From: Eledone cirrhosa
Lineage: Eukaryota
Direction: 5' to 3'
Assembly (NCBI GenBank): GCA_964016885.1
Contig: OZ024746.1
Span: forward strand, 101,308,001-101,372,000
Length of the DNA: 64,000 nt
Part shown: in pieces, positions 20,187-58,205 of the stretch
How the letters are laid out: each line of letters starts with the position of its first letter
Position numbering within the stretch: the first letter of the stretch is position 1
Made by a program: the position numbers and the translations under genes
Notes under the pieces: model-generated
Seen by the model: only the letters and a program-made list of their open reading frames with translations
Databases searched by the model: none
Told to the model about the DNA's origin: nothing

Positions 20187-20299
20187 AGCAGAATAAATGG
20201 AGAAGGCAATACATTCAAAAACAAATTTTGTTTTTGAACGTATTGCCTTTCTGCTTACCTTCTGCACTTAACTCTCATTAAATATTAATTATTTATGTG

Positions 20300-23200
20300 T
20301 CAGGCCACTCTCGAGTGCTACTGGTAACATGTAACCCAGTACAACCTGTCGCATGGTCGGGTCGTCGGTGACTAAACCGGCAACCCCATCAAGTTTTCTT
20401 GGTGAGGAGGGTGATTTTGGACATCCTGCAGGTCAAAAACAAAACCTGACAAAGGGCGGAAGAACTCATAAGAGTCAACGGCCATCCAAAAATTGTGTAA
20501 ATATGTATATAGTGTATATAGTGTGTATTTGGTAGCCTTGGTTGGCAATCTGTCTAGGAGAGGGACCACTCTCATTTCAAAGCCGGGGCAGACAGAGCTC
20601 TTTGGCCTTGATAGGCAATCTGTCAAACCAATCCTGACTGGGTTAAATGACGACATTGGTAAGCAGGATGTCGGATCAGTAGATAAGGCAATGATCAAGT
20701 AACTGTGAATTTGGTTCATACTACTAGTGGCAAGGCAATCATATCAACTATTGTTGGATGTTTCGGTGAAGCACAACCGCTCTAATACAGAGTACTGCTT
20801 TCACTTGTATGGAGTAGCGATCGCAAGTGTCTATCCAACTACTGAAAGCTAAATATGGCACAAATTCTTTGATGTTCATCCCGCAGCGCTCGTCGCGCGG
20901 TTAAACAAGGAGCGTGTCCTGCAACGGATTCCCAGATTGCAGTTGAAAAATCAGATACTGGGAAACATACACGGAGAAAACAACCAACCCGACTTGTACA
21001 CAGAAAGAAAGACATCTTTACTGGTACACTCAATGTTCAAACACTCCAGAAAGACCATCAAATCCCTGAACTAATTGCTTCAGCAGGGGCGACCAACCAT
21101 GATGTTATCTGTCTTCAGGAGCACCGGTTCATACATGAAGAGCTTGTAACAAAGGAGCAAATATTTGGCAATTGGAGGCTGATAACCTGCTCAGATTGGA
21201 AAAACAACATAAATGCAGCAAATGGTGGAGTTGGAATGCTTTTCAGCCCGCGAGCCTATGATGCACTTGCGAATGTTGAAATGATAACATCAAGGATAAT
21301 GATAGCTATGTTTAACGGGAACCCTAAAACCACTGTAATCTCTTGCTATAATCCAACAAATGTATGTGACGTGGCCGAAGTAGAGAGGTTCTACATGGAA
21401 CTAACATCACTCACTAGACAAATCCGGAAATATAATGTTCTCATCATTGGCGGAGACTTCAACGCGCGTCTTGGACAGCTTGATGGATTCAAATTCTCAT
21501 ACCACTGACAAACCAATAGAAACGGTTGTATGCTAAAAGATTACTTGTGTGAGAACAATTTACGATGTCTCAACGCCATATTCCAAAAAAGACCAGGCCA
21601 GCGGTGGACACACAAATCTCTAAATGCGGACAAGACACAACTGGATTATATCATAATCAATCGAAAATGGAAGAACAGCGCAAAAAACTGCAGTGCATAT
21701 GACTCGTTTGTTAGTGTTGACTCGGATCATCGCATTGTCTCGGCCATGATACGATTAAGTCTCTGAGTGGATAAAAAGAAATCTGCAAATGCTACTCCTT
21801 ACAACTGGGCAGTTCTGAATACCAATCCTGAGACTTACAAAACCTTTGTAACCCAACTGAACAACCGATTTGCTGCCCTACAAGACTCTGCGCCAACAAA
21901 ATCATCAAATTCTACATTTAACCACTTTCAAAGAGGCAGTGGCCGACACCATCCCTTTAAAACCCAAGGTTAAAAAACGAAAACCCTGGGAAACAGAGAG
22001 GATACGCCAAAAGCGCAAAGAGTTGCGAAAAGCTGCAGAATTGAAAGACACTCAACGATCTCCAGAAAACATTAGTAACTTCAATGCTGCTTGTACAGCA
22101 CTGAAAAGAGAGTATGAAATTGAGCAAGCCGAATACATGCAGAAAAAGATCAATCATATCTCAAGTACTGTCAGCAATAAGAGGTCTGCTGAAGCCTGGA
22201 CAACTGTCAATGAAATTAGTGGCAGAAAAAGTAGTGACAGAGCCAAACTGAAAGCCTCCAGCCAAGACGAACGTTTAAAACTGTGGCAACAACATTTTCA
22301 GAACCTACTTGGCAAAGCACCACAGATCATCGAAGAAGAAATAATACCCGTTTTTACAGAGGAACACCAAATACAGAAAGGTCCTTTCACTATGGAGGAA
22401 CTACAGAAAGCAGTGAAAAGTATTGGTAACGGAAAAGCGTGCGGACTCGACGAGATCCCAGCTGAAGTGTGGAAGGTACCTGAATTTCACCCAATCCTAC
22501 TAGAGTTGCGTAATGCTGTCTATAATCAAGACCCCATAGACAAATGGACTGAGGGATATATTCTCCCTTTTCTCGAAAAGGGCGATCTTAGAATGGCTAA
22601 AAACTACCGTGGCATAACACTAATGGCAATTGCCGCAAAGATATACAATCTCATATTGCTTAACAGAATAAGACCTGTCATTGAGCCCTTGCTGAGAAAA
22701 AACCAAATTGGCTTCCGCACCAACAGATCAACATCAGGGCAAATACTTACTATTCGGCGTATCTTGGAAGGTGTAAAAGCCAAAAACCTCCCAGCAACTC
22801 ACCTGTTTATTGACTTTTCAAAAGCATTCGATTCCATCCATCGTGGGAGGATGAGAGAGATACTTCTAACCTACGGCTTGCCAAGGGAAACAGTAAATTC
22901 CATCATGATGTTATATAAAAACACCCACGCAATGGTGCGCTCACCTGATGGAGATACCAACTTCTTTGACATCATTGCAGGAGTACTCCAAGGAGATACT
23001 CTTGCACCAGATATTTTTATCATCTGCGTCGACTATGTATTGAGAAAAGCCCTGAACGAAAACTTAGAGCTTGGTTTCACTCTCACAGAACGAAAGTGTA
23101 GACACCATGCAGCTCAGAAAATCACCGATGCTGACTATGCGGATGATTTAGCGGTCCTCGCTGACTACCTTAAGGATGCAACATCACTACTTCCCAGCAT

Positions 23201-23862
23201 CTAATCAGTTGCAAAGGAAATCGGGCTCTATGTCAACGCAGGCAAAACAGAATATATTTGCCTGAACCAAGACTCCTCAGTTTGGTATGCGAAGTCTAAA
23301 CGGCGATATAATCAAGCAAGTTGACGACTTCAAATACCTGGGTAGCTATATCGCCTCCACAGAACATGCTGTTAAAATCAGACTGGGAAAAGCCTGGGGA
23401 GCATTGAATGCAATGGAAAAAATATGGAAATCAAACCTGCCGGCCAAACTGAAAAGGAATTTCTTCAGAGCTGCTGTGGAATCTGTGCTTGTTTATGGCT
23501 CTATCACTTGGATGCTAACGTCGAAACTGGAGAAAAAGCTAGACGGGGCATACACATGTATGCTCCGCGCTGCTTTAAACGTATCTTGGAGGGAACACCC
23601 AACAAATAATGATCTCTATGGCAATATACCACCTATCAGCAAGTCAATACGTAAACAGAGACTCAGATTTGCTGGCCACTGTTGGCGCAGCAAGGAAGAA
23701 ATAGCAGGTGATGTATTGTTATGGAGTCCATCTCTTGGAGCAAGAAACGCTGGTTGTCCCAAGAAGACATACGTCAAGCAACTTGAGGACGATACTGGAT
23801 GCACTGTGGAAGAACTAGCAAACACTATGAGAGACAGAGATGGATGGAGGAAACGTGTCGTA
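20300..23862 (+). mobile_element. Near full-length decayed RTE-clade LINE (5' UTR, APE endonuclease, RT)
   Basis: GTLNVQT, LQE, GDFNA, LDYI, SDH; NYRGITL, FIDFSKAFDSI, GVLQGD, YADD, LRFAGH; split by stops/frameshifts into ORFs 21236-23883. Confidence 0.92.
20303..20483 (+). ncRNA. Multi-hairpin structured RNA at RTE 5' end (candidate ribozyme)
   Basis: Closing stem plus five internal hairpins; second copy at 48728-48909. Confidence 0.55.
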
Positions 23863-24098
23863 GAAATATTAACCTTACTATAATATTTAACACTGCATTG
23901 AGCACACTTCGCTTCGGCTATTGGCATGTAATATACTGTATCATAATTTTCTTTCACCTCCATGTCTCTTCTTTGATATATATATACATTTGTATTTGTA
24001 AAGCCAAAACAATGCAGGTATGGACATAGAATAAAAATGCAAATGCAAAAGATATTGTTGACAATTAGTCTTTTACCTTAAATTTATTTAAATGTCCT

Positions 24099-24134
<36 letters not shown>

Positions 24135-24339
24135 CAAAGAAAGTGTGGTAAGGAATCAGGTGGACCATAACGCACCAGAGTACTTGATACTTTGGGTAGT
24201 AGAGTGGGTAATAGGAAAAGAGCCAGGACCCCAATGGCTGAGCTCCGGCTGTTTCCACAGCTAATACTGCTGGCTTAGTTCGGATCTAGCTGTCAAAACG
24301 GCTTGAGCTCTGCCGTCGGGGTCCTGACTATTTTCCTAT

Positions 24340-24590
24340 ATATATATATATATAGTGGTAGAATACTGGAAGGTAATATCCGTAGTGGTAGAGCACTCAG
24401 TCCATGTTACCTCCCCTACACCTCTCGCACGCAATTTAGTATTGTCTGTGTGAAGTGACAGTTTCTGCGCATGCGCGTTCGTATGGTTGTCCTTCCTGTT
24501 CCGTATAACCATGTCCATTACGAGCTGAGGATCCGCTAAGGTGAAACAATTGTTCTTGGTATGGTGAAGTAACTGTTGTGTAACCACTTC
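24340..24590 (+). mobile_element. Penelope-like pLTR remnant
   Basis: (TA)n-flanked and contains a hammerhead motif. Confidence 0.55.
24521..24558 (+). ncRNA. 38-nt minimal hammerhead ribozyme with palindromic stem III
   Basis: CGAG CTGAGGA tCC gctaa GGt GAAA CAATTG TT CTTG. Confidence 0.7.
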
Positions 24591-25276
24591 TATATATATA
24601 TAGGAATAAGTCTGACCCCGACGGCAGAGCTCAAGCTGTTTCGACGGCTATTTCCAGAAATAGCCGTCGAAACGGCTTGAGCTCGGGGTCATATACTTGT
24701 TCCTATTACTCATTCTACTACCCTAAGTATTGAGTACTTTGGTGCGTTATGGTCCATCTGGTTCCTTACCACAATTCCTTTGTTATATATATATATATAC
24801 AAACAATAACATTTACATATATATATACACATACACACACACATATATATATATATGTATGTGTGTGTGTGCGTGCACATATATATATACTTAGATGTAT
24901 ATGTGATAATTATACAGCTTCAGTAAGATAACAATAGTTGGTATAAGAGGCCATTAGTACTAAGGGACATGTCAGGTAGAAGTGACACTTCTCTAGAGAA
25001 TTGGGCCAGAGTTACAGTAAAGATATTAAAGACTGCTAAAACTATTTTTATGTATGAAAATATCAGAAAATCTTCTCAAAATGTGTTGTGTTGTTGCTGT
25101 CTCTTCCACAGTATCACCTAGAGGTCTCTATTGTATGTTGAGAGAGAGAGAGGGGTAAAGAGAGGGAAGGAGATGTAGAGAGAGAGGGGTAAAGATAGGG
25201 AGAGAGAGGGAGGGAGAGAGAGTATGTGTGTGTTATGCTTTTAAGTTAAATTAGATAAATTTTGCGTATGATATAA

Positions 25277-31564: not shown

Positions 31565-31790
31565 AGAACATATCACCCAACAGAAGATGTGGATCACCTC
31601 TGTCTCCCTAGACAAAATGAGAGGAATGCTCCAGCCCAAGCTGTCATACAAGATATCGACTATTGGACTGAATCAGTACCTTAAAACCACAGATGACAGG
31701 ATGATGAAAATGGTTGCAGATCATGAAAGGAGGAAGAGGTTACATTCAGTCACAAAGGAAAGTAGGGAGTTTGCTGAAGAACTGCTTCTA
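31565..31790 (+). mobile_element. R4/Dong-like LINE internal fragment running into the satellite
   Basis: DVDHL.LPR.. and LSYKISTIGLNQYL..DDRMMKMV..HE..KRLHSV.KE..F. Confidence 0.55.
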
Positions 31791-34700
31791 ACACTAGAGA
31801 TGTATTACAGTGAACTGGGGTAACACCCCTTATCTCAGCTTCTAACACTGGAGATGTATTACAGTGAACTGAGGTAACACCCCTTATCTCAGCTTCTAAC
31901 ACTAGAGATGTATTACAGTGAACTGAGGTAACACTCCTTATCTCAGCTTCTAACACTAGAGATGTATTACAGTGAACTGAGGTAACACCCCTTATCTCAG
32001 CTTCTAACACTAGAGATGTATTACAGTGAACTGAGGTAACACCCCTTATCTCAGCTTCTAACACTGGAGATGTATTACAGTGAACTGAGGTAACACTCCT
32101 TATCTCAGCTTCTAACACTAGAGATGTATTACAGTGAACTGAGGTAACACCCCTTATCACAGCTCCTAACACTAAAGATGTATTACAGTGAACTGAGGTA
32201 ACACCCCTTATCTCAGCTTCTAACACTAGAGATGTATTACAGTGTTAGCTGTTCACTACCAGTGAACTGGGGTAACACCCCTTATCTCAGCTTCTAACAC
32301 TAGAGATGTATTACAGTGTTAGCTGTTCACTACCAGTGAACTGGGGTAACACCCCTTATCTCAGCTTTTAACACTAGAGATGTATTACAGTGAACTGAGG
32401 TAACACCCCTTATCTCAGCTTCTAACACTAGAGATGTATTACAGTGAACTGAGGTAACACCCCTTATCTCAGCTTCTAACACTAGAGATGTATTACAGTG
32501 AACTGGGGTAACACCACTTATCTCAGCTTCTAACACTGGAGATGTATTACAGTGAACTGGGGTAACACCACTTATCTCAGCTTCTAACACTAGAGATGTA
32601 TTACAGTGAACTGAAGTAACACCCCTTATCTCAGCTTCTAACACTGGAGATGTATTACAGTGAACTGAGGTAACACCCCTTATCACAGCTTCTAACACTA
32701 GAGATGTATTACAGTGGACTGGGGTAACACCCCTTATCTCAGCTTCTAACACTGGAGATGTATTACAGTGAACTGAGGTAACACCCCTTATCACAGCTTC
32801 TAACACTAGAGATGTATTACAGTGGACTGGGGTAACACCCCTTATCTCAGCTTCTAACACTAGAGATGTATTACAGTGGACTGAGATAACACCCCTTATC
32901 ACAGCTTCTAACACTGGAGATGTATTACAGTGAACTGAGGTAACACCCCTTATCACAGCTTCTAACACTAGAGATGTATTACAGTGGACTGGGGTAGCAC
33001 CCCTTATCTCAGCTTCTAACACTAGAGATGTATTACAGTGAACTGAGATAACACCCCTTATCTCAGCTTCTAACACTAGAGATGTATTACAGTGAACTGA
33101 GGTAACACCCCTTATCACAGCTTCTAACACTAGAGATGTATTACAGTGAACTGGGGTAACAGCCCTTATCTCAGCTTCTAACACTGGAGATGTATTACAG
33201 TGAACTGAGGTAACACCCCTTATCTCAGCTTCTAACACTAGAGATGTATTACAGTGGACTGGGGTAACACCCCTTATCTCAGCTTCTAACACTGGAGATG
33301 TATTACAGTGAACTGAGGTAACACCCCTTATCACAGCTTCTAACACTGGAGATGTATTACAGTGAACTGAGGTAACACCCCTTATCACAGCTTCTAACAC
33401 TAGAGATGTATTACAGTGGAATGGGGTAACACCCCTTATCTCAGCTTCTAACACTAGAGATGTATTACAGTGAACTGAGGTAACAGCCCTTATCTCAGCT
33501 TCTAACACTGGAGATGTATTACAGTGAACTGAGGTAACACCCCTTATCTCAGCTTCTAACACTAGAGATGTATTACAGTGAACTGAGGTAACACCCCTTA
33601 TCTCAGCTTCTAACACTGGAGATGTATTACAGTGAACTGAGGTAACACCCCTTATCACAGCTTCTAACACTAGAGATGTATTACAGTGAACTGGGGTAAC
33701 ACCACTTATCTCAGCTTCTAACACTAGAGATGTATTACAGTGGACTGAAGTAACACCCCTTATCTCAGCTTCTAACACTAGAGATGTATTACAGTGGACT
33801 GGGGTAACACCTCTTATCACAGCTTCTAACACTAGAGATGTATTACAGTGGACTGAGATAACACCCCTTATCACAGCTTCTAACACTGGAGATGTATTAC
33901 AGTGAACTGAGGTAACACCCCTTATCACAGCTTCTAACACTAGAGATGTATTACAGTGGACTGGGGTAACACCCCTTATCTCAGCTTCTAACACTGGAGA
34001 TGTATTACAGTGAACTGAGGTAACACCCCTTATCACAGCTTCTAGCACTGGAGATGTATTACAGTGGACTGGGGTAACACCCCTTATCTCAGCTTCTAAC
34101 ACTGGAGATGTATTACAGTGGACTGGGGTAGCACCCCTTATCTCAGCTTCTAACACTGGAGATGTATTACAGTGAATTGAGGTAACACCCCTTATCACAG
34201 CTTCTAACACTAGAGATGTATTACAGTGGACTGGGGTAACACCCCTTATCTCAGCTTCTAACACTGGAGATGTATTACAGTGGACTGGGGTAGCACCCCT
34301 TATCTCAGCTTCTAACACTAGAGATGTATTACAGTGAACTGAGATAACACCCCTTATCTCAGCTTCTAACACTAGAGATGTATTACAGTGAACTGAGGTA
34401 ACACCCCTTATCACAGCTTCTAACACTAGAGATGTATTACAGTGGACTGGGGTAACACCCCTTATCTCAGCTTCTAACACTGGAGATGTATTACAGTGGA
34501 CTGGGGTAACACTCCTTATCTCAGCTTCTAACACTAGAGATGTATTACAGTGAACTGAGGTAACACCCCTTATCTCAGCTTCTAACACTAGAGATGTATT
34601 ACAGTGGACTGGGGTAACACCCCTTATCTCAGCTTCTAACACTAGAGATGTATTACAGTGAACTGAGGTAACACCCCTTATCACAGCTTCTAACACTAGA

Positions 34701-37700
34701 GATGTATTACAGTGGACTGGGGTAACACCCCTTATCTCAGCTTCTAACATTGGAGATGTATTACAGTGAACTGAGGTAACACCCCTTATCACAGCTTCTA
34801 GCACTGGAGATGTATTACAGTGAACTGAGGTAACACTCCTTATCACAGCTTCTAACACTGGAGATGTATTACAGTGGACTGGGGTAACACCCCTTATCTC
34901 AGCTTCTAACACTAGAGATGTATTACAGTGAACTGAGGTAACACCCCTTATCTCAGCTTCTAACACTAGAGATGTATTACAGTGAACTGAGATAACACCC
35001 CTTATCACAGCTTCTAACACTAGAGATGTATTACAGTGAACTGGGGTAACACCCCTTATCTCAGCTTCTAACACTAGAGATGTATTACAGTGAACTGAGA
35101 TAACACCCCTTATCACAGCTTCTAACACTAGAGATGTATTACAGTGGACTGGGGTAACACCCCTTATCTCAGCTTCTAACACTAGAGATGTATTACAGTG
35201 AACTGAGGTAACACCCCTTATCTCAGCTTCTAACACTAGAGATGTATTACAGTGGACTGGGGTAGCACCCCTTATCTCAGCTTCTAACACTAGAGATGTA
35301 TTACAGTGAACTGAGATAACACCCCTTATCTCAGCTTCTAACACTAGAGATGTATTACAGTGAACTGAGGTAACACCCCTTATCTCAGCTTCTAACACTG
35401 GAGATGTATTACAGTGAACTGAGGTAACACCCCTTATCTCAGCTTCTAACACTAGAGATGTATTACAGTGAACTGAGGTAACACCCCTTATCTCAGCTTC
35501 TAACACTGGAGATGTATTACAGTGAACTGAGGTAACACCCCTTATCTCAGCTTCTAACACTGGAGATGTATTACAGTGAACTGAGATAACACCCCTTATC
35601 TCAGCTTCTAACACTAGAGATGTATTACAGTGAACTGAGGTAACACCCCTTATCTCAGCTTCTAACACTGGAGATGTATTACAGTGAACTGAGGTAACAC
35701 CCCTTATCTCAGCTTCTAACACTGGAGATGTATTACAGTGAACTGAGGTAACACCCCTTATCTCAGCTTCTAACACTAGAGATGTATTACAGTGAACTGA
35801 GATAACACCCCTTATCACAGCTTCTAACACTAGAGATGTATTACAGTGAACTGGGGTAACACCCCTTATCTCAGCTTCTAACACTAGAGATGTATTACAG
35901 TGAACTGAGATAACACCCCTTATCACAGCTTCTAACACTAGAGATGTATTACAGTGGACTGGGGTAACACCCCTTATCTCAGCTTCTAACACTAGAGATG
36001 TATTACAGTGAACTGAGGTAACACCCCTTATCTCAGCTTCTAACACTAGAGATGTATTACAGTGGACTGGGGTAGCACCCCTTATCTCAGCTTCTAACAC
36101 TAGAGATGTATTACAGTGAACTGAGATAACACCCCTTATCTCAGCTTCTGACACTAGAGATGTATTACAGTGAACTGAGGTAACACCCCTTATCTCAGCT
36201 TCTAACACTGGAGATGTATTACAGTGAACTGAGGTAACACCCCTTATCTCAGCTTCTAACACTAGAGATGTATTACAGTGAACTGAGGTAACACCTCTTA
36301 TCTCAGCTTCTAACACTAGAGATGTATTACAGTGAACTGAGGTAACACCCCTTATCACAGCTTCTAACACTAGAGATGTATTACAGTGGACTGGGGTAAC
36401 ACCCCTTATCTCAGCTTCTAACACTGGAGATGTATTACAGTGGACTGGGGTAACACTCCTTATCTCAGCTTCTAACACTAGAGATGTATTACAGTGAACT
36501 GGGGTAGCACCCCTTATCTCAGCTTCTAACACTAGAGATGTATTACAGTGAACTGAGGTAACACTCCTTATCTCAGCTTCTAACACTGGAGATGTATTAC
36601 AGTGGACTGGGGTAACACCCCTTATCTCAGCTTCTAACACTGGAGATGTATTACAGTGAACTGAGGTAACACCCCTTATCACAGCTTCTAACACTGGAGA
36701 TGTATTACAGTGAACTGAGGTAACACCCCTTATCACAGCTTCTAACACTAGAGATGTATTACAGTGGAATGGGGTAACACCCCTTATCTCAGCTTCTAAC
36801 ACTAGAGATGTATTACAGTGAACTGAGGTAACAGCCCTTATCTCAGCTTCTAACACTGGAGATGTATTACAGTGAACTGAGGTAACACCCCTTATCTCAG
36901 CTTCTAACACTAGAGATGTATTACAGTGAACTGAGGTAACACCCCTTATCTCAGCTTCTAACACTGGAGATGTATTACAGTGAACTGAGGTAACACCCCT
37001 TATCACAGCTTCTAACACTAGAGATGTATTACAGTGAACTGGGGTAACACCACTTATCTCAGCTTCTAACACTAGAGATGTATTACAGTGGACTGAAGTA
37101 ACACCCCTTATCTCAGCTTCTAACACTAGAGATGTATTACAGTGGACTGGGGTAACACCCCTTATCACAGCTTCTAACACTAGAGATGTATTACAGTGGA
37201 CTGAGATAACACCCCTTATCACAGCTTCTAACACTGGAGATGTATTACAGTGAACTGAGGTAACACCCCTTATCACAGCTTCTAACACTAGAGATGTATT
37301 ACAGTGGACTGGGGTAACACCCCTTATCTCAGCTTCTAACACTGGAGATGTATTACAGTGAACTGAGGTAACACCCCTTATCACAGCTTCTAGCACTGGA
37401 GATGTATTACAGTGGACTGGGGTAACACCCCTTATCTCAGCTTCTAACACTGGAGATGTATTACAGTGGACTGGGGTAGCACCCCTTATCTCAGCTTCTA
37501 ACACTGGAGATGTATTACAGTGAATTGAGGTAACACCCCTTATCACAGCTTCTAACACTAGAGATGTATTACAGTGGACTGGGGTAACACCCCTTATCTC
37601 AGCTTCTAACACTGGAGATGTATTACAGTGGACTGGGGTAGCACCCCTTATCTCAGCTTCTAACACTAGAGATGTATTACAGTGAACTGAGATAACACCC

Positions 37701-40528
37701 CTTATCTCAGCTTCTAACACTAGAGATGTATTACAGTGAACTGAGGTAACACCCCTTATCACAGCTTCTAACACTAGAGATGTATTACAGTGGACTGGGG
37801 TAACACCCCTTATCTCAGCTTCTAACACTGGAGATGTATTACAGTGGACTGGGGTAACACTCCTTATCTCAGCTTCTAACACTAGAGATGTATTACAGTG
37901 AACTGAGGTAACACCCCTTATCTCAGCTTCTAACACTAGAGATGTATTACAGTGGACTGGGGTAACACCCCTTATCTCAGCTTCTAACACTAGAGATGTA
38001 TTACAGTGAACTGAGGTAACACCCCTTATCACAGCTTCTAACACTAGAGATGTATTACAGTGGACTGGGGTAACACCCCTTATCTCAGCTTCTAACATTG
38101 GAGATGTATTACAGTGAACTGAGGTAACACCCCTTATCACAGCTTCTAGCACTGGAGATGTATTACAGTGAACTGAGGTAACACTCCTTATCACAGCTTC
38201 TAACACTGGAGATGTATTACAGTGGACTGGGGTAACACCCCTTATCTCAGCTTCTAACACTAGAGATGTATTACAGTGAACTGAGGTAACACCCCTTATC
38301 TCAGCTTCTAACACTAGAGATGTATTACAGTGAACTGAGATAACACCCCTTATCACAGCTTCTAACACTAGAGATGTATTACAGTGAACTGGGGTAACAC
38401 CCCTTATCTCAGCTTCTAACACTAGAGATGTATTACAGTGAACTGAGATAACACCCCTTATCACAGCTTCTAACACTAGAGATGTATTACAGTGGACTGG
38501 GGTAACACCCCTTATCTCAGCTTCTAACACTAGAGATGTATTACAGTGAACTGAGGTAACACCCCTTATCTCAGCTTCTAACACTAGAGATGTATTACAG
38601 TGGACTGGGGTAGCACCCCTTATCTCAGCTTCTAACACTAGAGATGTATTACAGTGAACTGAGATAACACCCCTTATCTCAGCTTCTAACACTAGAGATG
38701 TATTACAGTGAACTGAGGTAACACCCCTTATCTCAGCTTCTAACACTGGAGATGTATTACAGTGAACTGAGGTAACACCCCTTATCTCAGCTTCTAACAC
38801 TAGAGATGTATTACAGTGAACTGAGGTAACACCCCTTATCTCAGCTTCTAACACTGGAGATGTATTACAGTGAACTGAGGTAACACCCCTTATCTCAGCT
38901 TCTAACACTGGAGATGTATTACAGTGAACTGAGATAACACCCCTTATCTCAGCTTCTAACACTAGAGATGTATTACAGTGAACTGAGGTAACACCCCTTA
39001 TCTCAGCTTCTAACACTGGAGATGTATTACAGTGAACTGAGGTAACACCCCTTATCTCAGCTTCTAACACTGGAGATGTATTACAGTGAACTGAGGTAAC
39101 ACCCCTTATCTCAGCTTCTAACACTAGAGATGTATTACAGTGAACTGAGATAACACCCCTTATCACAGCTTCTAACACTAGAGATGTATTACAGTGGACT
39201 GGGGTAACACCCCTTATCTCAGCTTCTAACACTAGAGATGTATTACAGTGAACTGAGGTAACACCCCTTATCTCAGCTTCTAACACTAGAGATGTATTAC
39301 AGTGGACTGGGGTAGCACCCCTTATCTCAGCTTCTAACACTAGAGATGTATTACAGTGAACTGAGATAACACCCCTTATCTCAGCTTCTGACACTAGAGA
39401 TGTATTACAGTGAACTGAGGTAACACCCCTTATCTCAGCTTCTAACACTGGAGATGTATTACAGTGAACTGAGGTAACACCCCTTATCTCAGCTTCTAAC
39501 ACTAGAGATGTATTACAGTGAACTGAGGTAACACCTCTTATCTCAGCTTCTAACACTAGAGATGTATTACAGTGAACTGAGGTAACACCCCTTATCACAG
39601 CTTCTAACACTAGAGATGTATTACAGTGGACTGGGGTAACACCCCTTATCTCAGCTTCTAACACTGGAGATGTATTACAGTGGACTGGGGTAACACTCCT
39701 TATCTCAGCTTCTAACACTAGAGATGTATTACAGTGAACTGGGGTAGCACCCCTTATCTCAGCTTCTAACACTAGAGATGTATTACAGTGAACTGAGGTA
39801 ACACTCCTTATCTCAGCTTCTAACACTGGAGATGTATTACAGTGAACTGAGGTAACACCCCTTATCTCAGCTTCTAACACTAGAGATGTATTACAGTGAA
39901 CTGAGGTAACACTCCTTATCTCAGCTTCTAACACTGGAGATGTATTACAGTGAACTGAGGTAACACCCCTTATCTCAGCTTCTAACACTGGAGATGTATT
40001 ACAGTGAACTGAGATAACACCCCTTATCACAGCTTCTAACACTGGAGATGTATTACAGTGAACTGAGGTAACACTCCTTATCTCAGCTTCTAACACTAGA
40101 GATGTATTACAGTGAACTGAGGTAACACCCCTTATCACAGCTTCTAACACTAGAGATGTATTACAGTGAACTGAGGTAACACCCCTTATCTCAGCTTCTA
40201 ACACTGGAGATGTATTACAGTGAACTGAGGTAACACCCCTTATCTCAGCTTCTAACACTAGAGATGTATTACAGTGAACTGAGGTAACACCCCTTATCTC
40301 AGCTTCTAACACTGGAGATGTATTACAGTGAACTGAGGTAACACTCCTTATATCAGCTTCTAACACTTGAGATGTATTACAGTGAACTGAGGTAACACCC
40401 CTTATCTCAGCTTCTAACACTGGAGATGTATTACAGTGAACTGAGGTAACACTCCTTATCTCAGCTTCTAACACTAGAGATGTATTACAGTGAACTGAGG
40501 TAACACCCCTTATCTCAGCTTCTAACAC
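31785..40528 (+). repeat. 54-bp satellite, ~160 units, with a 3.2-3.3-kb higher-order duplication
   Basis: Unit CTTCTAACACTAGAGATGTATTACAGTGAACTGAGGTAACACCCCTTATCTCAG. Confidence 0.98.
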
Positions 40529-41077
40529 AGTTCACTGTAATACATCTCTAGCGTTAGAAGCTGAGATAAGGAGTGTTACCTCAGTTCACTGTAATACATC
40601 TCCAGTGTTAGAAGCTGAGATAAGGAGTGTTACCTCAGTTCACTGTAATACATCTCCAGTGTTAGAAGCTGAGATAAGGAGTGTTACCTCAGTTCACTGT
40701 AATACATCTCCAGTGTTAGAAGCTGAGATAATGGGTGCTACCCCAGTTCACTGTAATACATCTCTAGTGTTAGAAGCTGAGATAAGGGGTGTTACCTCAG
40801 TTCTCTGGTAGTGAACAGCTAACACTGTAATACATCTCCAGTGTTAGAAGCTGAGATAAGGGGTGTTACCCCAGTTCACTGGTAGTGAACAGCTAACACT
40901 GTAATACATCTCCAGTGTTAGAAGCTGAGATAAGGGGTGTTACCTCAGTTCTCTGGTAGTGAACAGCTAACACTGTAATACATCTCCAGTGTTAGAAGCT
41001 GAGATAAGGGGTGTTACCTCAGTTCTCTGGTAGTGAACAGCTAACACTGTAATACATCTCCAGTGTTAGAAGCTGAG
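40528..41077 (-). repeat. Inverted block of the same satellite (54- and 73-bp units)
   Basis: Strand switch at ...TCTAACA|CAGTTCACTG... Confidence 0.95.
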
Positions 41078-48653: not shown

Positions 48654-48724
<71 letters not shown>

Positions 48725-48727
48725 GTT

Positions 48728-48968
48728 GGGTGACTCTTGAGTGCTACTGTAACATGTAACCCAGTACATCTTATCGCATGGTCGGGTTGTCGGTGACTAA
48801 ACCGGCAACCCCACCAAGTTTACTTGATGAGGAGGGTGATTTTGGACACCCTGCAGGACAAAAAACAGAACCTGACAAAGGGTGGAAGAACTCATAAGAG
48901 TCAACAGCCATCCAAAAATGTGTAAATATGTATATACACATGTACATATGTATGTGTATGTATGTATA

Positions 48969-49033
<65 letters not shown>

Positions 49034-49415
49034 GTATATATATATGCATGTGTGCATATGTTCAGAGACATAGAAATAGTTGGGTTGGACACCCGATCGC
49101 GCAGTTAAACCACTGGGAGTGAAGGACCCCTAGCCTTAGTCAGGGCATTCTTCTAGGAGAAGGCAACTCAGGAAACTGGGATAACTCCGACATAAAATCT
49201 GCAGCTCAGTAGTTACCGATGATGTTGATCTTTTCTTCTTTTCGGGTTATAGCTACTGTCGCTCAGAGAGTGGGATTGGCTCAGTGCACAGTCTTTCTTC
49301 ACTTTAAAAAAAATCTTCACGCACAGGCATTGCACAATAGAATTAATTAATAATTATTTATAATGGTATATCGTACAATGGCCATAATTGATAACGAGGA
49401 GGCAACCATCATATG
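48728..49415 (+). mobile_element. Complete bipartite non-autonomous RTE derivative
   Basis: Structured 5' RNA homologous to 20303-20483, (TA)n, 5' UTR motif, RTE-type 3' tail; no ORF. Confidence 0.65.
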
Positions 49416-50099: not shown

Positions 50100-53000
50100 T
50101 ATCTATAAACCCCCCTAACATTCCCTCACAACAAACCCACAACCATCATTACTTTCAACATAGAACCCAAAATACACAACTACAACACATGACACATAGG
50201 GCCTCACAACCACACACCAACTATAAGGAAACCCCAATCTACCCTCCTCCACTAACCACATCCTACAACAACACCAGCAGGGGACAGTACAACCACACAA
50301 GACACCCTAACCACTACAACCACCATAACTACACACCATACAACAACAGCAGGACTCAATATACCCACACAAGGCAACCCTACTACAACAACCACCAAGT
50401 CTACACACCCTACAACAACAGCAGGGCTCAATACAACTATACGATGCAACCTAACTTCAACAACCACCACAACTACACAACCTATAACAATGTCCATCAA
50501 ATCTACACACCCTACAACAACATCAGCAGGGCTCAATACCACACGATACAACCTAACTTCAACAACCACCACAGCTATACACCCTCTAACAACAACAGCA
50601 GGGGCCAATACAACCATAAGAGACATCCAAACTTCAACAACCACCACAGCTTCCGTAGTCATTTTTTAGACATAGCACTCAGACACAGGGTAACGAGATA
50701 ACCCAAAACACACAGAAGACACAAAATATAATAAAAATCGTTAATTTAACCCCTAAAGAATTAACAACAGACCAAATCAACATACTCTCCAAAGGTCTGA
50801 AATTTACACCAACTCCCCAACTACTCCGAAAGGAAGGAAGATATTGCAGAATTCTGTAGAAAACTAAGATTCAGCAAGCAACTATACGACAAATACAATG
50901 AGGATGACTGAATAGCCAGAAATAGAAGCAACTACACCCCACCAAAAAGCAAGAACAAATTCCTCGATCAATTTTGCGAACACATTACTTATTACCCATA
51001 CCACCACCTACACAGACATAAACAAAAACCTAACCTAAGCAAAAAAGAATGGAATGGTCTTAACAGTCTAAAGAACGACAAAACCCTAACAATCAAAGAG
51101 GCGGATAAAGGAAGTACAGTAATCCTTATGAAAACAGATTACTACACGACTCTAGTACTCTCAACTCTAGAAAACCAAACATATTACAAAAAGGCCCAAC
51201 ACTACACACAACAGAAAATAATGAGAAACCTAAAATCCCTAACAACCCTTTACAAAGAAGGCCTTACCGACAAGGAATACAACTACATCACCAATTTCAA
51301 AAGTGAAGTAATAGGCAGGGCCTGCAAGGAGGCCACACACATTTACATCAATATCCTCCCTCCCGATGACCTTAAATTAAGACCCATAATAGCAGGCACC
51401 ACATGTGAAACCCACCGCCTAAGCAACTTCCTAGATATTCTGCTTAAACCTTTCCTAAAACACATAAAAAGCTTCATAAGGGACGACCTTGACATACTCA
51501 ACCACCTCCCAACAACACTTAATAATGAACAAACCCTACTAGTAACCTTTGATGGCATCAATTTATATTCCAATATCCCACACAACCTAGGTATAGAGGC
51601 AATACAATTCTGGATGGAAAATTTCCCTAGTGAACTTCCACAGCGCATCCCTAAAGAATTTGTGTTGGAGGGACTCAAATTCATCTTGGAAAACAACTTA
51701 TTCGAATTCGATGCCAAATACTACAGACAGAAATCCGGGACTGCCATGGGCACGAAAGTAGCCCCCTCATACGCCAACCTTGTCATGGGATATTTGGAAA
51801 CTACTCTCTACCGCAAAGTTCTAGACAAATACGGTAACCACTTCTACCAACACATAGAAAAGAAATGGAAGAGATATCTGGACGACTGCTTCATTCTCTG
51901 GCATGAAAGTATAGAAAGACTGATTGAGTTTAAAACCCTTCTAAATGGACTCAACACAAACTTACAATTTACAATGGAATACAGCCATGAACAACTCCCT
52001 TTCCTTGACATCCTCATCAAGAAAACAAACAACAAAATAGAAACAGACATATACTACAAATCCACAGACTCCAAATAATATCTTCCATTTAACTCGTGCC
52101 ACCCTTGCCATACCAAAATAGCAATTCCTTATAACCTAGCCAGAAGGATCTGCACAATAGTTTCAGATAAATACACATGCTACACACGACTAGAAGAATT
52201 AAGAACACACTTAGCAGAAACTACCCACCATCCTTAATCAACAATGGATTCCAACATGCCCTAAAACTCAACATCCAGGAATGAACCGCAACAGAAAACT
52301 CTACCATACATCTCCACACACAACCCCCTCAACAATGAGGCATTCGATACCATCCTCCAGAACATTCCTTTACTAAAAAGAGACCCAAGAATGAACAAAA
52401 TCCTCCAAAAACACACAACATCATAAAGAGCAAAAGACAACCTAAATCCATAAAAAACATCCCCACACAAGCCAAAATCCAACCAACCCTCCCAATGAAC
52501 CCTACAGTAAAAAAATGCGGAAGGCCCAACTGTGGTATATGCATAAATCTAATAGATGGTTCAACATTCCACTTTAAACAAGGACAACATTTCTCGGTTA
52601 AATACAACTTTAGATGTGCATCTGAAAACCTAATCTATGTTTTGAGCTGCTCAGGAGACAAAAAACAGCCTCCGACAATGAATGACCTTCCATAGATCAC
52701 AAATCAAAATACAAGAATACAGAAAGATTGCTTTTAGTGAACATATCGCCAATTGTGCACCTAACCAACAACCTAACTTTAAAATTTTCCCCATTTACAA
52801 ATTCATAGACAACGCTTCTTTCATCCATTGTACCAATAAGGAAACGAACTTCATTAACAAATTCCAACCTCTACTTAATGGACTAAACTTCGGACTAAAC
52901 TAAAACTGGAACGAACAATGAACCAAAGCTCCAAATTCCTATGTTCTCTAAAGAGTTACCTCCCATACACCCTACCTAATCCTTTTTCTTATATAAATGA

Positions 53001-54637: not shown

Positions 54638-55136
54638 CTAGCAGTGTATCCCGGCGTTGCACGGGTAAGAACATTGGTAATAGCACCTCCAATGAGAAAC
54701 GTTTCTCATTGGAGAATGAAGGAGATTTTTCATTCTCCAATGAGAAATGTTTATTTGTGAGTGCCTGTTAAAAACTCATGAACTGGACATGAAAATGAAA
54801 ATGGCATGTAATGCCCAATGCTAATTCGTAAATTTCCTAGAAACTATTAAGGAAATTGGAAATTATATTTGTCCACAGCAATGCAAGGGGACTAACTAAT
54901 GTGTGCTGCAAATTTTAAGGAAATTGGCTGGATTATCTTTAAGTTATGCCTCAAAAAAGCCTAAAATTGCCTAATGTGGGCCCCATCGCAGAAAAAGTTT
55001 AATTTTTTTAGCCCATTGCACTTCAAGAAATATAAGTAACACATGTGTAAAGTTTGAAAAATATCGGTTGGGTACTTCTCGAGTTTTAGGGATTTTCACA
55101 GACAGACAGACATCCTCTGTTTTATATATATAGAGA
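54638..55136 (-). mobile_element. Non-autonomous Helitron
   Basis: Minus strand 5' TCTCTATATATA...; 3' hairpin CCCGTGCAACGCCGGG + CTAG; A|T target. Confidence 0.75.
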
Positions 55137-58100
55137 TTGCAACACTTAATATATAGAGTTGCAACACTTAATGTTGGCACTCTCAGAGGTAGGTCTGCTG
55201 AAATAGCGGAGATGCTGGAGAGAAGGCAGGTGGATGTGTGCTGCGTGCAAGAGGTGAGATGGAGGGGTGCCTCTGCGAGACCAGTCGTAGGCAAGCGTCT
55301 TAGCTATAAGCTATTCTGGGTAGGTAAGGATGATGGGTTAGGGGGAGTAGGCATTTTCCTGGCTGAGAAATGGATCAATAAGACAATAGAGGTAGTTCGA
55401 GTTAGTAATCGAATAATTAAGCTTAGATTAGTTGTAGGTAGGAGACTACTGACAATCATCTCGGTCTATGCTCCCCAAGCAGGCCTAGGCAAAGATGAGA
55501 AAGACTGCTTTTATGAGCAACTTTTGCAAACAACCACAATGACAGAGGACGGAGACATCGTTATGCTAGCAGGAGACTTCAATGGTCATGTTGGACAGCT
55601 CCAGGATGGTTACACTGGGGTACATGGTGGGCACGGTTACGGTTCAAGAAATGAAGAAGGAGTGAGACTTCTTGAATTTTGTGATGCAAGTACATTGACT
55701 ATTTGCAACACAAACTTCCAGAAACCTGCCAATCACCTAATAACCTACAAATCTGGTGAGCACATAAGCCAGATTGACTTCCTGCTAGTTAGGCAGCGGG
55801 ACAGGCAGATAGTGTCTAATACCAAGGCATACCCTGGGGAAGAATGTACCCCACAGCATAGGTTAGTTGTTAGTGATATCTCAGTAAGCAAGAGATGGAA
55901 TGAGACATATAGGAAGGTGTGGAGAAGAAAGGTCTGGAAGCTAAAAGACCTTTCATTAAAATTCAAATTTAGGAAAGCCCTTCAAGATGTATATGACGAA
56001 AAAGAAGACGATTTAGAGACGTATGACATAGATAATAACTGGAAGTTCTTACGTGACAACTTGCTGAAGGCTACTGATGAAACCTGTGGCTGGAGCAGAG
56101 CTCCAACCAGACAGAGAGTGACCTGGTGGTGGAACAGCAGTGTAGATAAGGCTATTAGAGACAAAAGACTAGCATGGAAGGCTTGGAATAAGGGTGGGAG
56201 TAGGGAAGAATATACAGCCACTAAGAGAGAAGCTAGACGTCAGGTGTACTTAGCACGCAGGGAGGCAGAGAGTAGGAGGTTTGCCAATGTTCTGCGACGG
56301 GAAGATCAGAGGCGTGCGGTGTTCCACATTGCAAGGCAGTGTGTCAATGCAAATCAGGATGTTGTTGGTGATAAATGTGTCCGGGATGATGCCGGTGTAC
56401 TTAGTGTCACGAATGACCAGACAAAGGAGGCCTGGAAATGTCATTATGAGAGACTGATGAATGTGGAGAACGAATGGGAGAGAGAGAAATTACCCTTGGT
56501 AGATCCGACAGAGGGACCAGCTATTGAGATTGACGAATATAGGGTCCAAGAGGCGATTAGGGAAATGAAAAATGGTAAGGCGGCCGGACCATCAGGAATA
56601 GTTGCTGAGATGCTGAAGGCATCAGGGGACGTAGGCACTAAACTGGTTGCACGCATAATCAATCAGGCTATATATGGTGGTGTCATACCCAAAGACTGGT
56701 GCAGCAGTATTCTCATAAATTGCTACAAAGGTAAAGGGGATGCTTTGGAGAGGAGCAATTATAGGGGTATAAAACTGATAGATCAGGTTATGAAAGTGGC
56801 AGAAAGGATTTTAGCACAACTAATTAGAGAAAGGGTCAAACTAGATGAGATGCAGTTTGGTTTTGTGCCTGGGAAGAGTACAACAGATGCCCTCTTCTTG
56901 GTGAGACAAATGCAAGAGAGGTTCTTAGAGAAGAATAAGCCACTATACTTAGCCTTTGTTGACCTAGAGAAGGCCTTTGATAGGGTACCCCGATCTGTCA
57001 TCTGGTGGTCCCTAAGGAAGCTGGGTGTTGAGGAATGGCTTGTAAGGACAGTGCAAACTTTGTACAGAGGTACTCTCAGTAAAGTCAGGGTAGGAATGGA
57101 GTTTAGTGAGGAATTCCAGATACAAGTAGGAGTACATCAGGGTTCGGTCCTCAGCCCGCTCTTGTTCATTATAGTCCTCCAAGCCATAACAGAGGAGTTT
57201 AAGACTGGCTGTCCATGGGAACTTCTCTATGCTGACGATCTGGCTCTTATGGCAGAATCAGTAGAGGAGCTAGAGAATAAATTCCGGCTATGGAAACAGC
57301 AGTTGGAAGCAAGAGGACTGAGAGTAAATCTAGCTAAGACAAAAGTGTTGATGAGTAGAAAAGAGGACAAAACCCTGATTCCGTCAGGGAAATGGCCATG
57401 TTCGATATGCAGAAAAGGAACTGGCATAAATTCTATAAAATGCACACAATGTAGGTCCTGGGTACACAAGAGATGTAGCGGGATAGCAGGCAAACTAACA
57501 GGTAGGGAGAAATATGTATGCAGTAGATGTACAGGGAAGTTAGACAGTAGAAGTCGCACTGATAGACACATTTTTCAAATGCGAGAGGGCGCTATAGAAG
57601 TGGTGGATAGCTTCCGGTACCTAGGAGATCAGATTAGCATGGGAGGAGGGTGTTCCGAGGCCATAGTATCTAGAATAAGGACGGGTTGGAAGAAGTTTAG
57701 GGAGCTGCTTCCTCTGTTGACGAAGAAGGGTTTCTCCCTGCGTACGAAAGGCCGGTTGTATGATGCCTGTGTGAGGAGCGCGATGCTGCATGGTAGTGAG
57801 ACATGGGCAGCTACCGCAGAAGATATGCGACGGCTGGAGAGAAATGAGGCAAGCATGCTCCGTTGGATGTGCAGTGTAAATGTGCGTGAACGACCCAGCA
57901 TAAATGTGTTGAGAGAGAAACTGTGTCTGAGAGGGATAGAATGTAGTGTACGGGAGAGGAGACTGAGGTGGTATGGACATGTGATGCACATGAAGGATGA
58001 CCGATGGGTGAAGAAGTGCCAGGAAATGCCAGTTGAAGGAAGACGTGGTAGAGGTAGACCACGAAAAACATGGGCGGAGGTGGTGAGAACAGACCTCAGA

Positions 58101-58205
58101 TCATTGAAGCTCACGGTGGAGATGACGAGGGACCGTGACGAGTGGAGAGATGCTGTGCTGAATAAGACCCGTCCCACCCTTGCAAGCAGGGAAAAGCGGA
58201 CGTAA
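55137..58205 (+). CDS. RTE LINE polyprotein: APE endonuclease, reverse transcriptase, PHD-type finger; frame uninterrupted but lacks its ATG
   Basis: TLNVGT, VQE, YAPQ, GDFNGH, IDF, QHRL; NYRGIKL, DLEKAFD, GVHQGS, YADD; C4HC3 motif; RLRWYGH, GRPRKTW. Confidence 0.93.
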   Translation: MQHLIYRVATLNVGTLRGRSAEIAEMLERRQVDVCCVQEVRWRGASARPVVGKRLSYKLFWVGKDDGLGGVGIFLAEKWINKTIEVVRVSNRIIKLRLVVGRRLLTIISVYAPQAGLGKDEKDCFYEQLLQTTTMTEDGDIVMLAGDFNGHVGQLQDGYTGVHGGHGYGSRNEEGVRLLEFCDASTLTICNTNFQKPANHLITYKSGEHISQIDFLLVRQRDRQIVSNTKAYPGEECTPQHRLVVSDISVSKRWNETYRKVWRRKVWKLKDLSLKFKFRKALQDVYDEKEDDLETYDIDNNWKFLRDNLLKATDETCGWSRAPTRQRVTWWWNSSVDKAIRDKRLAWKAWNKGGSREEYTATKREARRQVYLARREAESRRFANVLRREDQRRAVFHIARQCVNANQDVVGDKCVRDDAGVLSVTNDQTKEAWKCHYERLMNVENEWEREKLPLVDPTEGPAIEIDEYRVQEAIREMKNGKAAGPSGIVAEMLKASGDVGTKLVARIINQAIYGGVIPKDWCSSILINCYKGKGDALERSNYRGIKLIDQVMKVAERILAQLIRERVKLDEMQFGFVPGKSTTDALFLVRQMQERFLEKNKPLYLAFVDLEKAFDRVPRSVIWWSLRKLGVEEWLVRTVQTLYRGTLSKVRVGMEFSEEFQIQVGVHQGSVLSPLLFIIVLQAITEEFKTGCPWELLYADDLALMAESVEELENKFRLWKQQLEARGLRVNLAKTKVLMSRKEDKTLIPSGKWPCSICRKGTGINSIKCTQCRSWVHKRCSGIAGKLTGREKYVCSRCTGKLDSRSRTDRHIFQMREGAIEVVDSFRYLGDQISMGGGCSEAIVSRIRTGWKKFRELLPLLTKKGFSLRTKGRLYDACVRSAMLHGSETWAATAEDMRRLERNEASMLRWMCSVNVRERPSINVLREKLCLRGIECSVRERRLRWYGHVMHMKDDRWVKKCQEMPVEGRRGRGRPRKTWAEVVRTDLRSLKLTVEMTRDRDEWRDAVLNKTRPTLASREKRT

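Follow-up and report, generated by a model that had tools for sequence, protein, structure and literature searches.

A candidate cellular xrRNA at the 5' end of LINEs and SINE-like elements in Eledone cirrhosa

We analysed a window of 64,000 nucleotides from the genome of Eledone cirrhosa (GenBank assembly GCA_964016885.1, contig OZ024746.1, positions 101,308,001 to 101,372,000 of the forward strand). It carries two copies of a structured module, one at the start of a LINE (copy 1, family A1) and one at the start of a SINE-like element (copy 2). The features of the two elements, in window coordinates, are the following:

20296..20300, + strand: start of the element, the five letters ahead of helix P1 (-5 to -1), placed by conservation among copies and by descriptor register, in which PK1 is predicted to use U20298 and G20299, and the triple U20300
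20301..20348, + strand: three-way junction, with P1 (20301-20305/20344-20348), P2 (20306-20317) and the junction C (20318)
20319-20324/20336-20341, + strand: P3 side of the three-way junction, followed by CA (20342-20343)
20328..20355, + strand: PK2, loop L3 CAUG (20328-20331) with S4 CAUG (20352-20355), 3 nt past P1
20356..20385, + strand: second domain, at the P4 position, a hairpin or small H-type pseudoknot (GUCG/YGAC and GUCGG/CCGRC)
20387..20491, + strand: third domain, four hairpins and a long-range helix
20415-20421 with 20485-20491, + strand: the long-range helix, formed by a loop with the tail and showing compensatory changes
20873..23883, + strand: single ORF of the LINE, broken, with endonuclease (20873-21508), RT (21861-23204) and a C-terminal piece (23266-23883)
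48722..48915, + strand: second copy of the head module, decayed, with a 1-nt deletion in P3 and changes in both P1 strands
48722..49412, + strand: SINE-like element of family A2, non-coding, with the head module at its start

The LINE headed by copy 1 has the features of the RTE clade, namely a single ORF, an APE endonuclease with RT, no ORF1 and microsatellite flanks, and is probably of RTE type, a label taken from this architecture rather than from an RT tree. Intact relatives of its ORF in the same genome are 1049 and 1056 aa long, and a protein homologue search with the LINE returned no informative names. The element behind copy 2 is ~620-690 nt long and differs in body from the LINE. A preliminary description of this DNA had the module capping an RTE LINE; this is correct for copy 1, at the 5' end of a LINE encoding endonuclease and RT, but not for copy 2, which heads the non-coding SINE-like element. 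The presence of the head in both places (given there as 20303 and 48728) is real, as the copies are 90% alike and each folds below all 200 of its shuffles (z of -3.07 for copy 1 and -3.62 for copy 2). In searches of the E. cirrhosa genome (3.0 Gb), all of the best 30 matches to copy 1, itself included, continue into the same downstream sequence, shared over at least 1.4 kb in 16 of them, and their upstream flanks are unrelated. The head of copy 1 is therefore the real 5' end of the element.

Elsewhere in the window, a 1023-aa open frame (55134-58205, + strand) encodes an endonuclease and an RT with a PHD finger directly after the RT, which is unusual in a LINE. A 54-nt tandem array of ~160 units occupies 31646-40955 and has a minus-strand open frame of 2733 codons, a perfect 426-nt inverted repeat with a 56-nt spacer lies at 1727-2634, and a broken RT element with a weak RVT_1 match, presumably Penelope-like, at 50912-52900 (+ strand). 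Two related short repeats, inverted and (TA)n-flanked, were seen by eye at ~24130-24790.

The head module is the shared 5' head of two RTE-type LINE families and several SINE-like families in E. cirrhosa. A head pattern gave 13,790 exact matches in the genome and its reversed control gave none. Protein searches of the same genome found two further single-ORF LINE families, B and C. The endonuclease of family B is 40% identical to that of A1, and 8 of 12 family B loci carry the same head, cut inside the head in three of the eight (L093, L095 and L098). These three are truncated at a near-identical place in loop L3, which resembles the target microsatellite. All 8 loci of family C, with an endonuclease 37% identical, start with another head. 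Pattern searches added families G, H and I and the SINE-like B2 in the E. cirrhosa genome, and a scan of metagenome contigs covering at least 120 loci added family D (L218), where a full ~200-nt homologue precedes a LINE ORF 27-29% identical to those of A1 and B, and family E (at least 10 loci), whose ~270-nt repeats start sharply and showed no ORF. Heads with 86-90% likeness over 86-154 nt stand on LINEs that are 27-40% alike in their endonucleases. Variants of the head occur in contigs of four sequencing runs, of which two are presumably RNA, and these contigs are uninformative on ends or expression, and viral contigs contained no relatives of the RT.

Another metagenome repeat, family F (at least 6 loci with a sharp boundary), was not counted: it passed the loose form of the descriptor given below, but has no Watson-Crick PK2 and no match to our model. 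Its copies (L212, L249, L255, L272, L274 and L285) start sharply after (CTT)n with an xrRNA-like junction, and in L212 the repeat comes after a degraded RT. In L355, from the pattern match on, a family G xrRNA-like unit forms a head-to-tail array of ~59-nt units.

The structured head spans ~20296 to 20491. The interval first given for it, 20303..20483, contains a real structured head but is too short on both sides, losing 5-7 conserved letters at the start and, at 20485-20491, the 3' arm of the long-range helix. The stem supposed to close the whole module, GACTCTTGAGT/ACTCA(TA)AGAGTC, did not hold up: its cells are paired at 72.6%, shuffled ones at 72.4%, and 327 of 500 shuffles score as high. 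The G at its start occurs in 4 of 29 copies, C being the majority letter there, and its two halves each form a local hairpin of their own. A pseudoknot suggested between CCT..TCGC and AGG-GCGG is disrupted in family B (TCTC versus GCAA in the alignment). Among the proposed hairpins, TACTGG/CCAGTA, CAYCAAG/CTTGRTG and CAGG/CCTG are backed by covariation, and GGGTG/CAYCC and GTCGG/CCGGC show conservation and one-sided changes only.

The xrRNA of flaviviruses (Zika-type) is an RNA knot that halts the RNA-degrading enzymes of the cell. We took the defining features of subclass 1a from passages in PMC8374639, PMC8571300, PMC5760640 and PMC8078501. The head shares with the subclass 1a xrRNAs of mosquito-borne flaviviruses the order and spacing of UGU, P1 (CAGGY/RCCUG), P2, a single C, the A-U second pair of P3, CA, a 3-nt spacer and a PK2 of 4-6 bp, as well as a stem directly downstream and further tandem structured domains. 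It differs in its setting, as cellular retroelements carry it at their 5' end and the viral xrRNAs belong to 3' UTRs, and in a P3 that opens with U-A, not C-G. Since the head scores under the Rfam cut-offs and its resistance is predicted only, we treat it as a variant in a new setting and not as a proven member.

Minimum free energy folding gave the same three-way junction in families A1 and B, but not in D. Within the junction P2 and P3 covary, and P1 is near-invariant, with one G-U change and one mismatch; in family A1 its inner pair is C-A. The single C between P2 and P3, described as a subclass 1a feature in passages of PMC8374639 and PMC8571300, is present in all nine rows of our alignment, fixed by the search pattern in six and free in A1, A2 and B. 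A PK1 of UG with CA, corresponding to the 1-2 bp that the 5' end is expected to make with the linker from P3 to P1, can form in 9/9 rows; its letters are invariant (G at -2 in 29/30 A1 copies), so this is pairing potential only. The letters of the U-A-U triple stand at the register of the viral loci without covariation, the triple itself being invisible from sequence. PK2, where 2-7 bp between L3 and S4 are expected, has 4-6 bp, among them three pairs with two-sided change, and reads CAUG/CAUG, CCUG/CAGG or AGCUG/CAGCU depending on the family.

The nine rows represent about four independent lineages. Six were found by patterns that fixed the PK1, P1 and triple letters and left P2, the inner part of P3 and PK2 free; for families D, E, G, H and I the invariance of PK1, P1 and the triple is therefore built in. 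Family F was left out of the alignment as it has no PK2. We observed pairing in 96% of cells and a covariation score of 0.282 versus 0.104, with none of 500 shuffles as high, and alignments slid out of register were 26-48% paired. Two-sided changes occurred in 8 of 22 pairs, three in P2, two in P3 and three in PK2.

The window had no Rfam match at gathering score, and on the module there was only a sub-threshold match to Flavivirus_SLIV. This family (RF01415) was the best match of the module at loose E-values, with 19.0 bits for A1, 21.9 for B and 22.6 for D against a cut-off of 54.5, and for A1 and B it was obtained before any xrRNA-shaped search. For family E there was no match to SLIV up to E 5, and Flavi_xrRNA (RF03547) matched none of the retroelement heads scanned. 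The heads did not reach gathering score for RF01415 or RF03547, cut-offs that one of the four viral loci described below did reach.

We then wrote a descriptor of the subclass 1a fold, in loose and strict forms, from the features in the cited papers. It was passed by copy 1 and by 3/5 family B copies, and the decayed copy 2 failed. Among 60 viral pattern hits it passed four, exactly the ~10.8-kb flavivirus-like contigs, each with its match near the 3' end. Three of these contigs carry flavivirus 3' UTR families at gathering score (L126 has none), and in L164 both RF01415 and RF03547 lie at the matched place. The register from UGU through the 5-bp P1, P2, C, P3, CA, P1 and 3 nt to PK2 is identical in the heads and the four viral loci. 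The strict form had 2 matches in 953,432 nt of background and 2 in 20,000 shuffles (~2 per Mb and 1 in 10,000, respectively), and was kept by only 8/30 A1 and 15/30 A2 copies. The loose form was also passed by four GC-rich, apparently bacterial loci, one of which passes the strict form. A pattern for the viral-type C-G at the base of P3 gave three matches in the E. cirrhosa genome, none of them that variant.

A model built from the nine alignment rows, retroelement heads only, placed L164 (38.9 bits) and L161 (23.9 bits) at the top of the 60 viral loci. The other two flavivirus-like loci were missed, and controls chosen by pattern scored 14-21 bits. All 10 family E loci scored 51-69 bits (two are training rows), no family C or F locus was found, and copy 2 scored 48.3 bits compared with 82.5 for copy 1, itself a training row.

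We followed conservation upstream of P1 in copies anchored on P3, using 30 copies of A1, 29 of 30 of A2, and 17 of 30 loci found via the protein alone. It reaches -5 and falls at -6: T stands at -5 in 26/30 A1, 28/29 A2 and 14/17 protein-found copies, and the letters at -6 are mixed. Viral xrRNAs are described as halting Xrn1 5-6 nt before P1 (passages in PMC5760640). The family boundary at -5 in the genome coincides with this distance, a coincidence confounded by the (TA)n/(TATG)n target preference and by the TA-rich microsatellite flanks, which inflate T at odd positions. Of 55 duplicated 5' junctions, 39 have TA at -5/-4; by eye about a third include a longer stretch of microsatellite, so the junctions do not fix the RNA end, and longer RNA ends may occur. 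The family B junctions, at 55 places in the genome, show short 5'-terminal duplications, as from repeated priming at an RNA end.

Downstream of the first 60 nt, the second domain is 92-97% paired with one-sided changes only, and the third shows compensatory changes in three hairpins. The loop-to-tail helix covaries: family A has UUUUGGA/UCCAAAA, family I UAUUUGGA/UCCAAAUA, family D GCUGGA/UCCAGC and family G, read separately, GUGGA/UCCAC. Six downstream helices, drawn as an alternative to the closing stem, reach 93% pairing, and 9 of their pairs change on both sides; no Rfam family matched these domains. Because non-coding families keep them with covariation, comparison of the families suggests that they act in cis in retrotransposition, beyond translation alone.

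The different head of family C (L101-L108; e.g. L105 at ~1390-1420), a young LINE with many intact 1056-aa copies, starts with a hairpin followed by AUUAAACUAC, which has 9/10 letters of the spacer of the coremin xrRNA of beny- and cucumoviruses. The two share a GUC/GAC hairpin and this near-identical spacer, including A16-A20, the letters needed for resistance according to passages in PMC6546385, but the 8-nt loop of family C does not fit the YGAD/YGNNAD consensus in excerpts of PMC10520033 and PMC10321173. By analogy this head is a second candidate cellular xrRNA, and it supports the theme of an exonuclease block by analogy only. The second domain of the head studied here likewise has a hairpin and UAAAC, without the CUAC part. 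A match of ARRPOF to family C (E 6e-5, 27 bits versus 127) leans on the (TA)n flank and was set aside.

A head of this anatomy and covariation, placed at the 5' boundary, is shared among unrelated element bodies, and our best reading is that the element owes its 5' end to a stalled exonuclease and not to self-cleavage. On comparative grounds we hold it fairly probable that the first 60 nt, which match the subclass 1a layout, form the same predicted knotted ring and serve as an exonuclease roadblock that makes the RNA's 5' end. Copies would be transcribed inside longer host RNAs, and Xrn1 or Xrn2 would degrade the upstream RNA and halt 5-6 nt before P1. The trimmed, stable RNA would be the insertion template, and we propose that for this reason the halt site becomes the first position of full-length copies, which thereby transmit the module. 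The downstream domains could act in cis as a second block, in RT recognition or in translation. The role of the module would be that of the HDV-like ribozyme in R2 and of twister in Perere-3.

The same anatomy and covariation would be seen if the knot were resistant but only protected an RNA end made otherwise, or were mainly a recognition signal for RT at the 5' junction. Some duplicated junctions do include upstream microsatellite, and the R2 ribozyme fold is thought to stabilise RNA apart from cutting (passages in PMC12222951). We nevertheless consider this unlikely, as the family boundary falls at the Xrn1 halt distance and nothing is conserved upstream of it.

Sharp boundaries and head swapping would also fit an internal Pol II promoter, with the 5' end as the transcription start. 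Such a promoter was proposed for LP-SINEs, where a LINE-derived 70-nt head on unrelated LINEs and SINEs was read in this way and no structure was proposed (passages in PMC4758252). LP-SINEs and the elements Nimb-17_LMi, I-3_DR and RTE-9_CPB resemble our families in carrying a short head on unrelated bodies. Changes in the E. cirrhosa heads preserve base pairs, including those of the pseudoknot, which a DNA-level function would not require, and a promoter alone seems quite unlikely to us; promoter and xrRNA-like roles can coexist.

HDV-like ribozymes occur at the 5' end of R2 and other non-LTR elements. The head has the same position, exactly at the 5' end, and would likewise release the element's RNA from the host transcript around it and make it more stable. 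It differs in that no catalytic core was found in it and in that its end would be produced by a host exonuclease and bear a 5' phosphate, not a 5' hydroxyl. A new self-cleaving ribozyme cutting at the boundary would account for its sharpness, and the RTE-clade element Perere-3 has twister variants at its 5' end (passages in PMC8501958). In the third domain TGAG-GAGGG-T resembles the twister 3' strand in Table 1 of that paper, but of the twister order of UAA at the cut, L4 CCCAAGC and GAGGG only GAGGG is present. No Rfam ribozyme family matched any head at E up to 5-10, in agreement with the earlier view that the element fits neither HDV-like nor twister ribozymes. The HDV-like nested double pseudoknot (P3/L3 motif, P1.1) gave neither an Rfam match nor a match to our own pattern, and our rough hammerhead, twister, HDV-like and pistol patterns, run without a positive control, were empty in the module; one pistol-like string occurs in family B and one CUGANGA far downstream in family D. 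The xrRNA layout accounts for the whole 5' domain, and we regard a new ribozyme as very unlikely. The preliminary description had offered a new ribozyme or a 5'-processing element; a structured 5'-processing element agrees with our reading, while the global fold it drew was incorrect, and our data favour a known fold, the subclass 1a xrRNA, in a new place.

A chance likeness, with stems inherited without function, would suit the sub-threshold Rfam scores, the few independent lineages and the ascertainment by pattern, but is hardly credible given a match at the first base of several families at a background of ~2 per Mb and 1 in 10,000 shuffles and compensatory changes in PK2, which no pattern fixed.

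The head is therefore best described as a 60-nt candidate cellular xrRNA with named, testable positions. A 2021 review states that all xrRNAs characterised so far are viral and asks whether cells have them too (PMC8374639), and titles and abstract openings in the literature gave no report of an xrRNA in a retroelement. The octopus repeat papers PMC9115989 and PMC13282606, in their available text, do not contain the word 'ribozyme', nor does the one checked for it contain 'xrRNA'; PMC12222951 mentions xrRNA twice, a reference being the place seen, and holds that the R2 ribozyme fold likely protects R2 RNA. We advance tentatively the wider view that cellular xrRNAs exist as functional exonuclease blocks of the flavivirus type and, in family C, of the coremin type, that as swappable heads of animal LINEs and SINEs they replace both promoter and ribozyme in setting the 5' end, and that transfer between retroelements and RNA viruses has spread the fold. 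If true, the roadblock would join internal promoters and ribozymes as a third way of making LINE 5' ends, would explain heads common to unrelated LINEs and SINEs, and would bear on the origin of viral xrRNAs.
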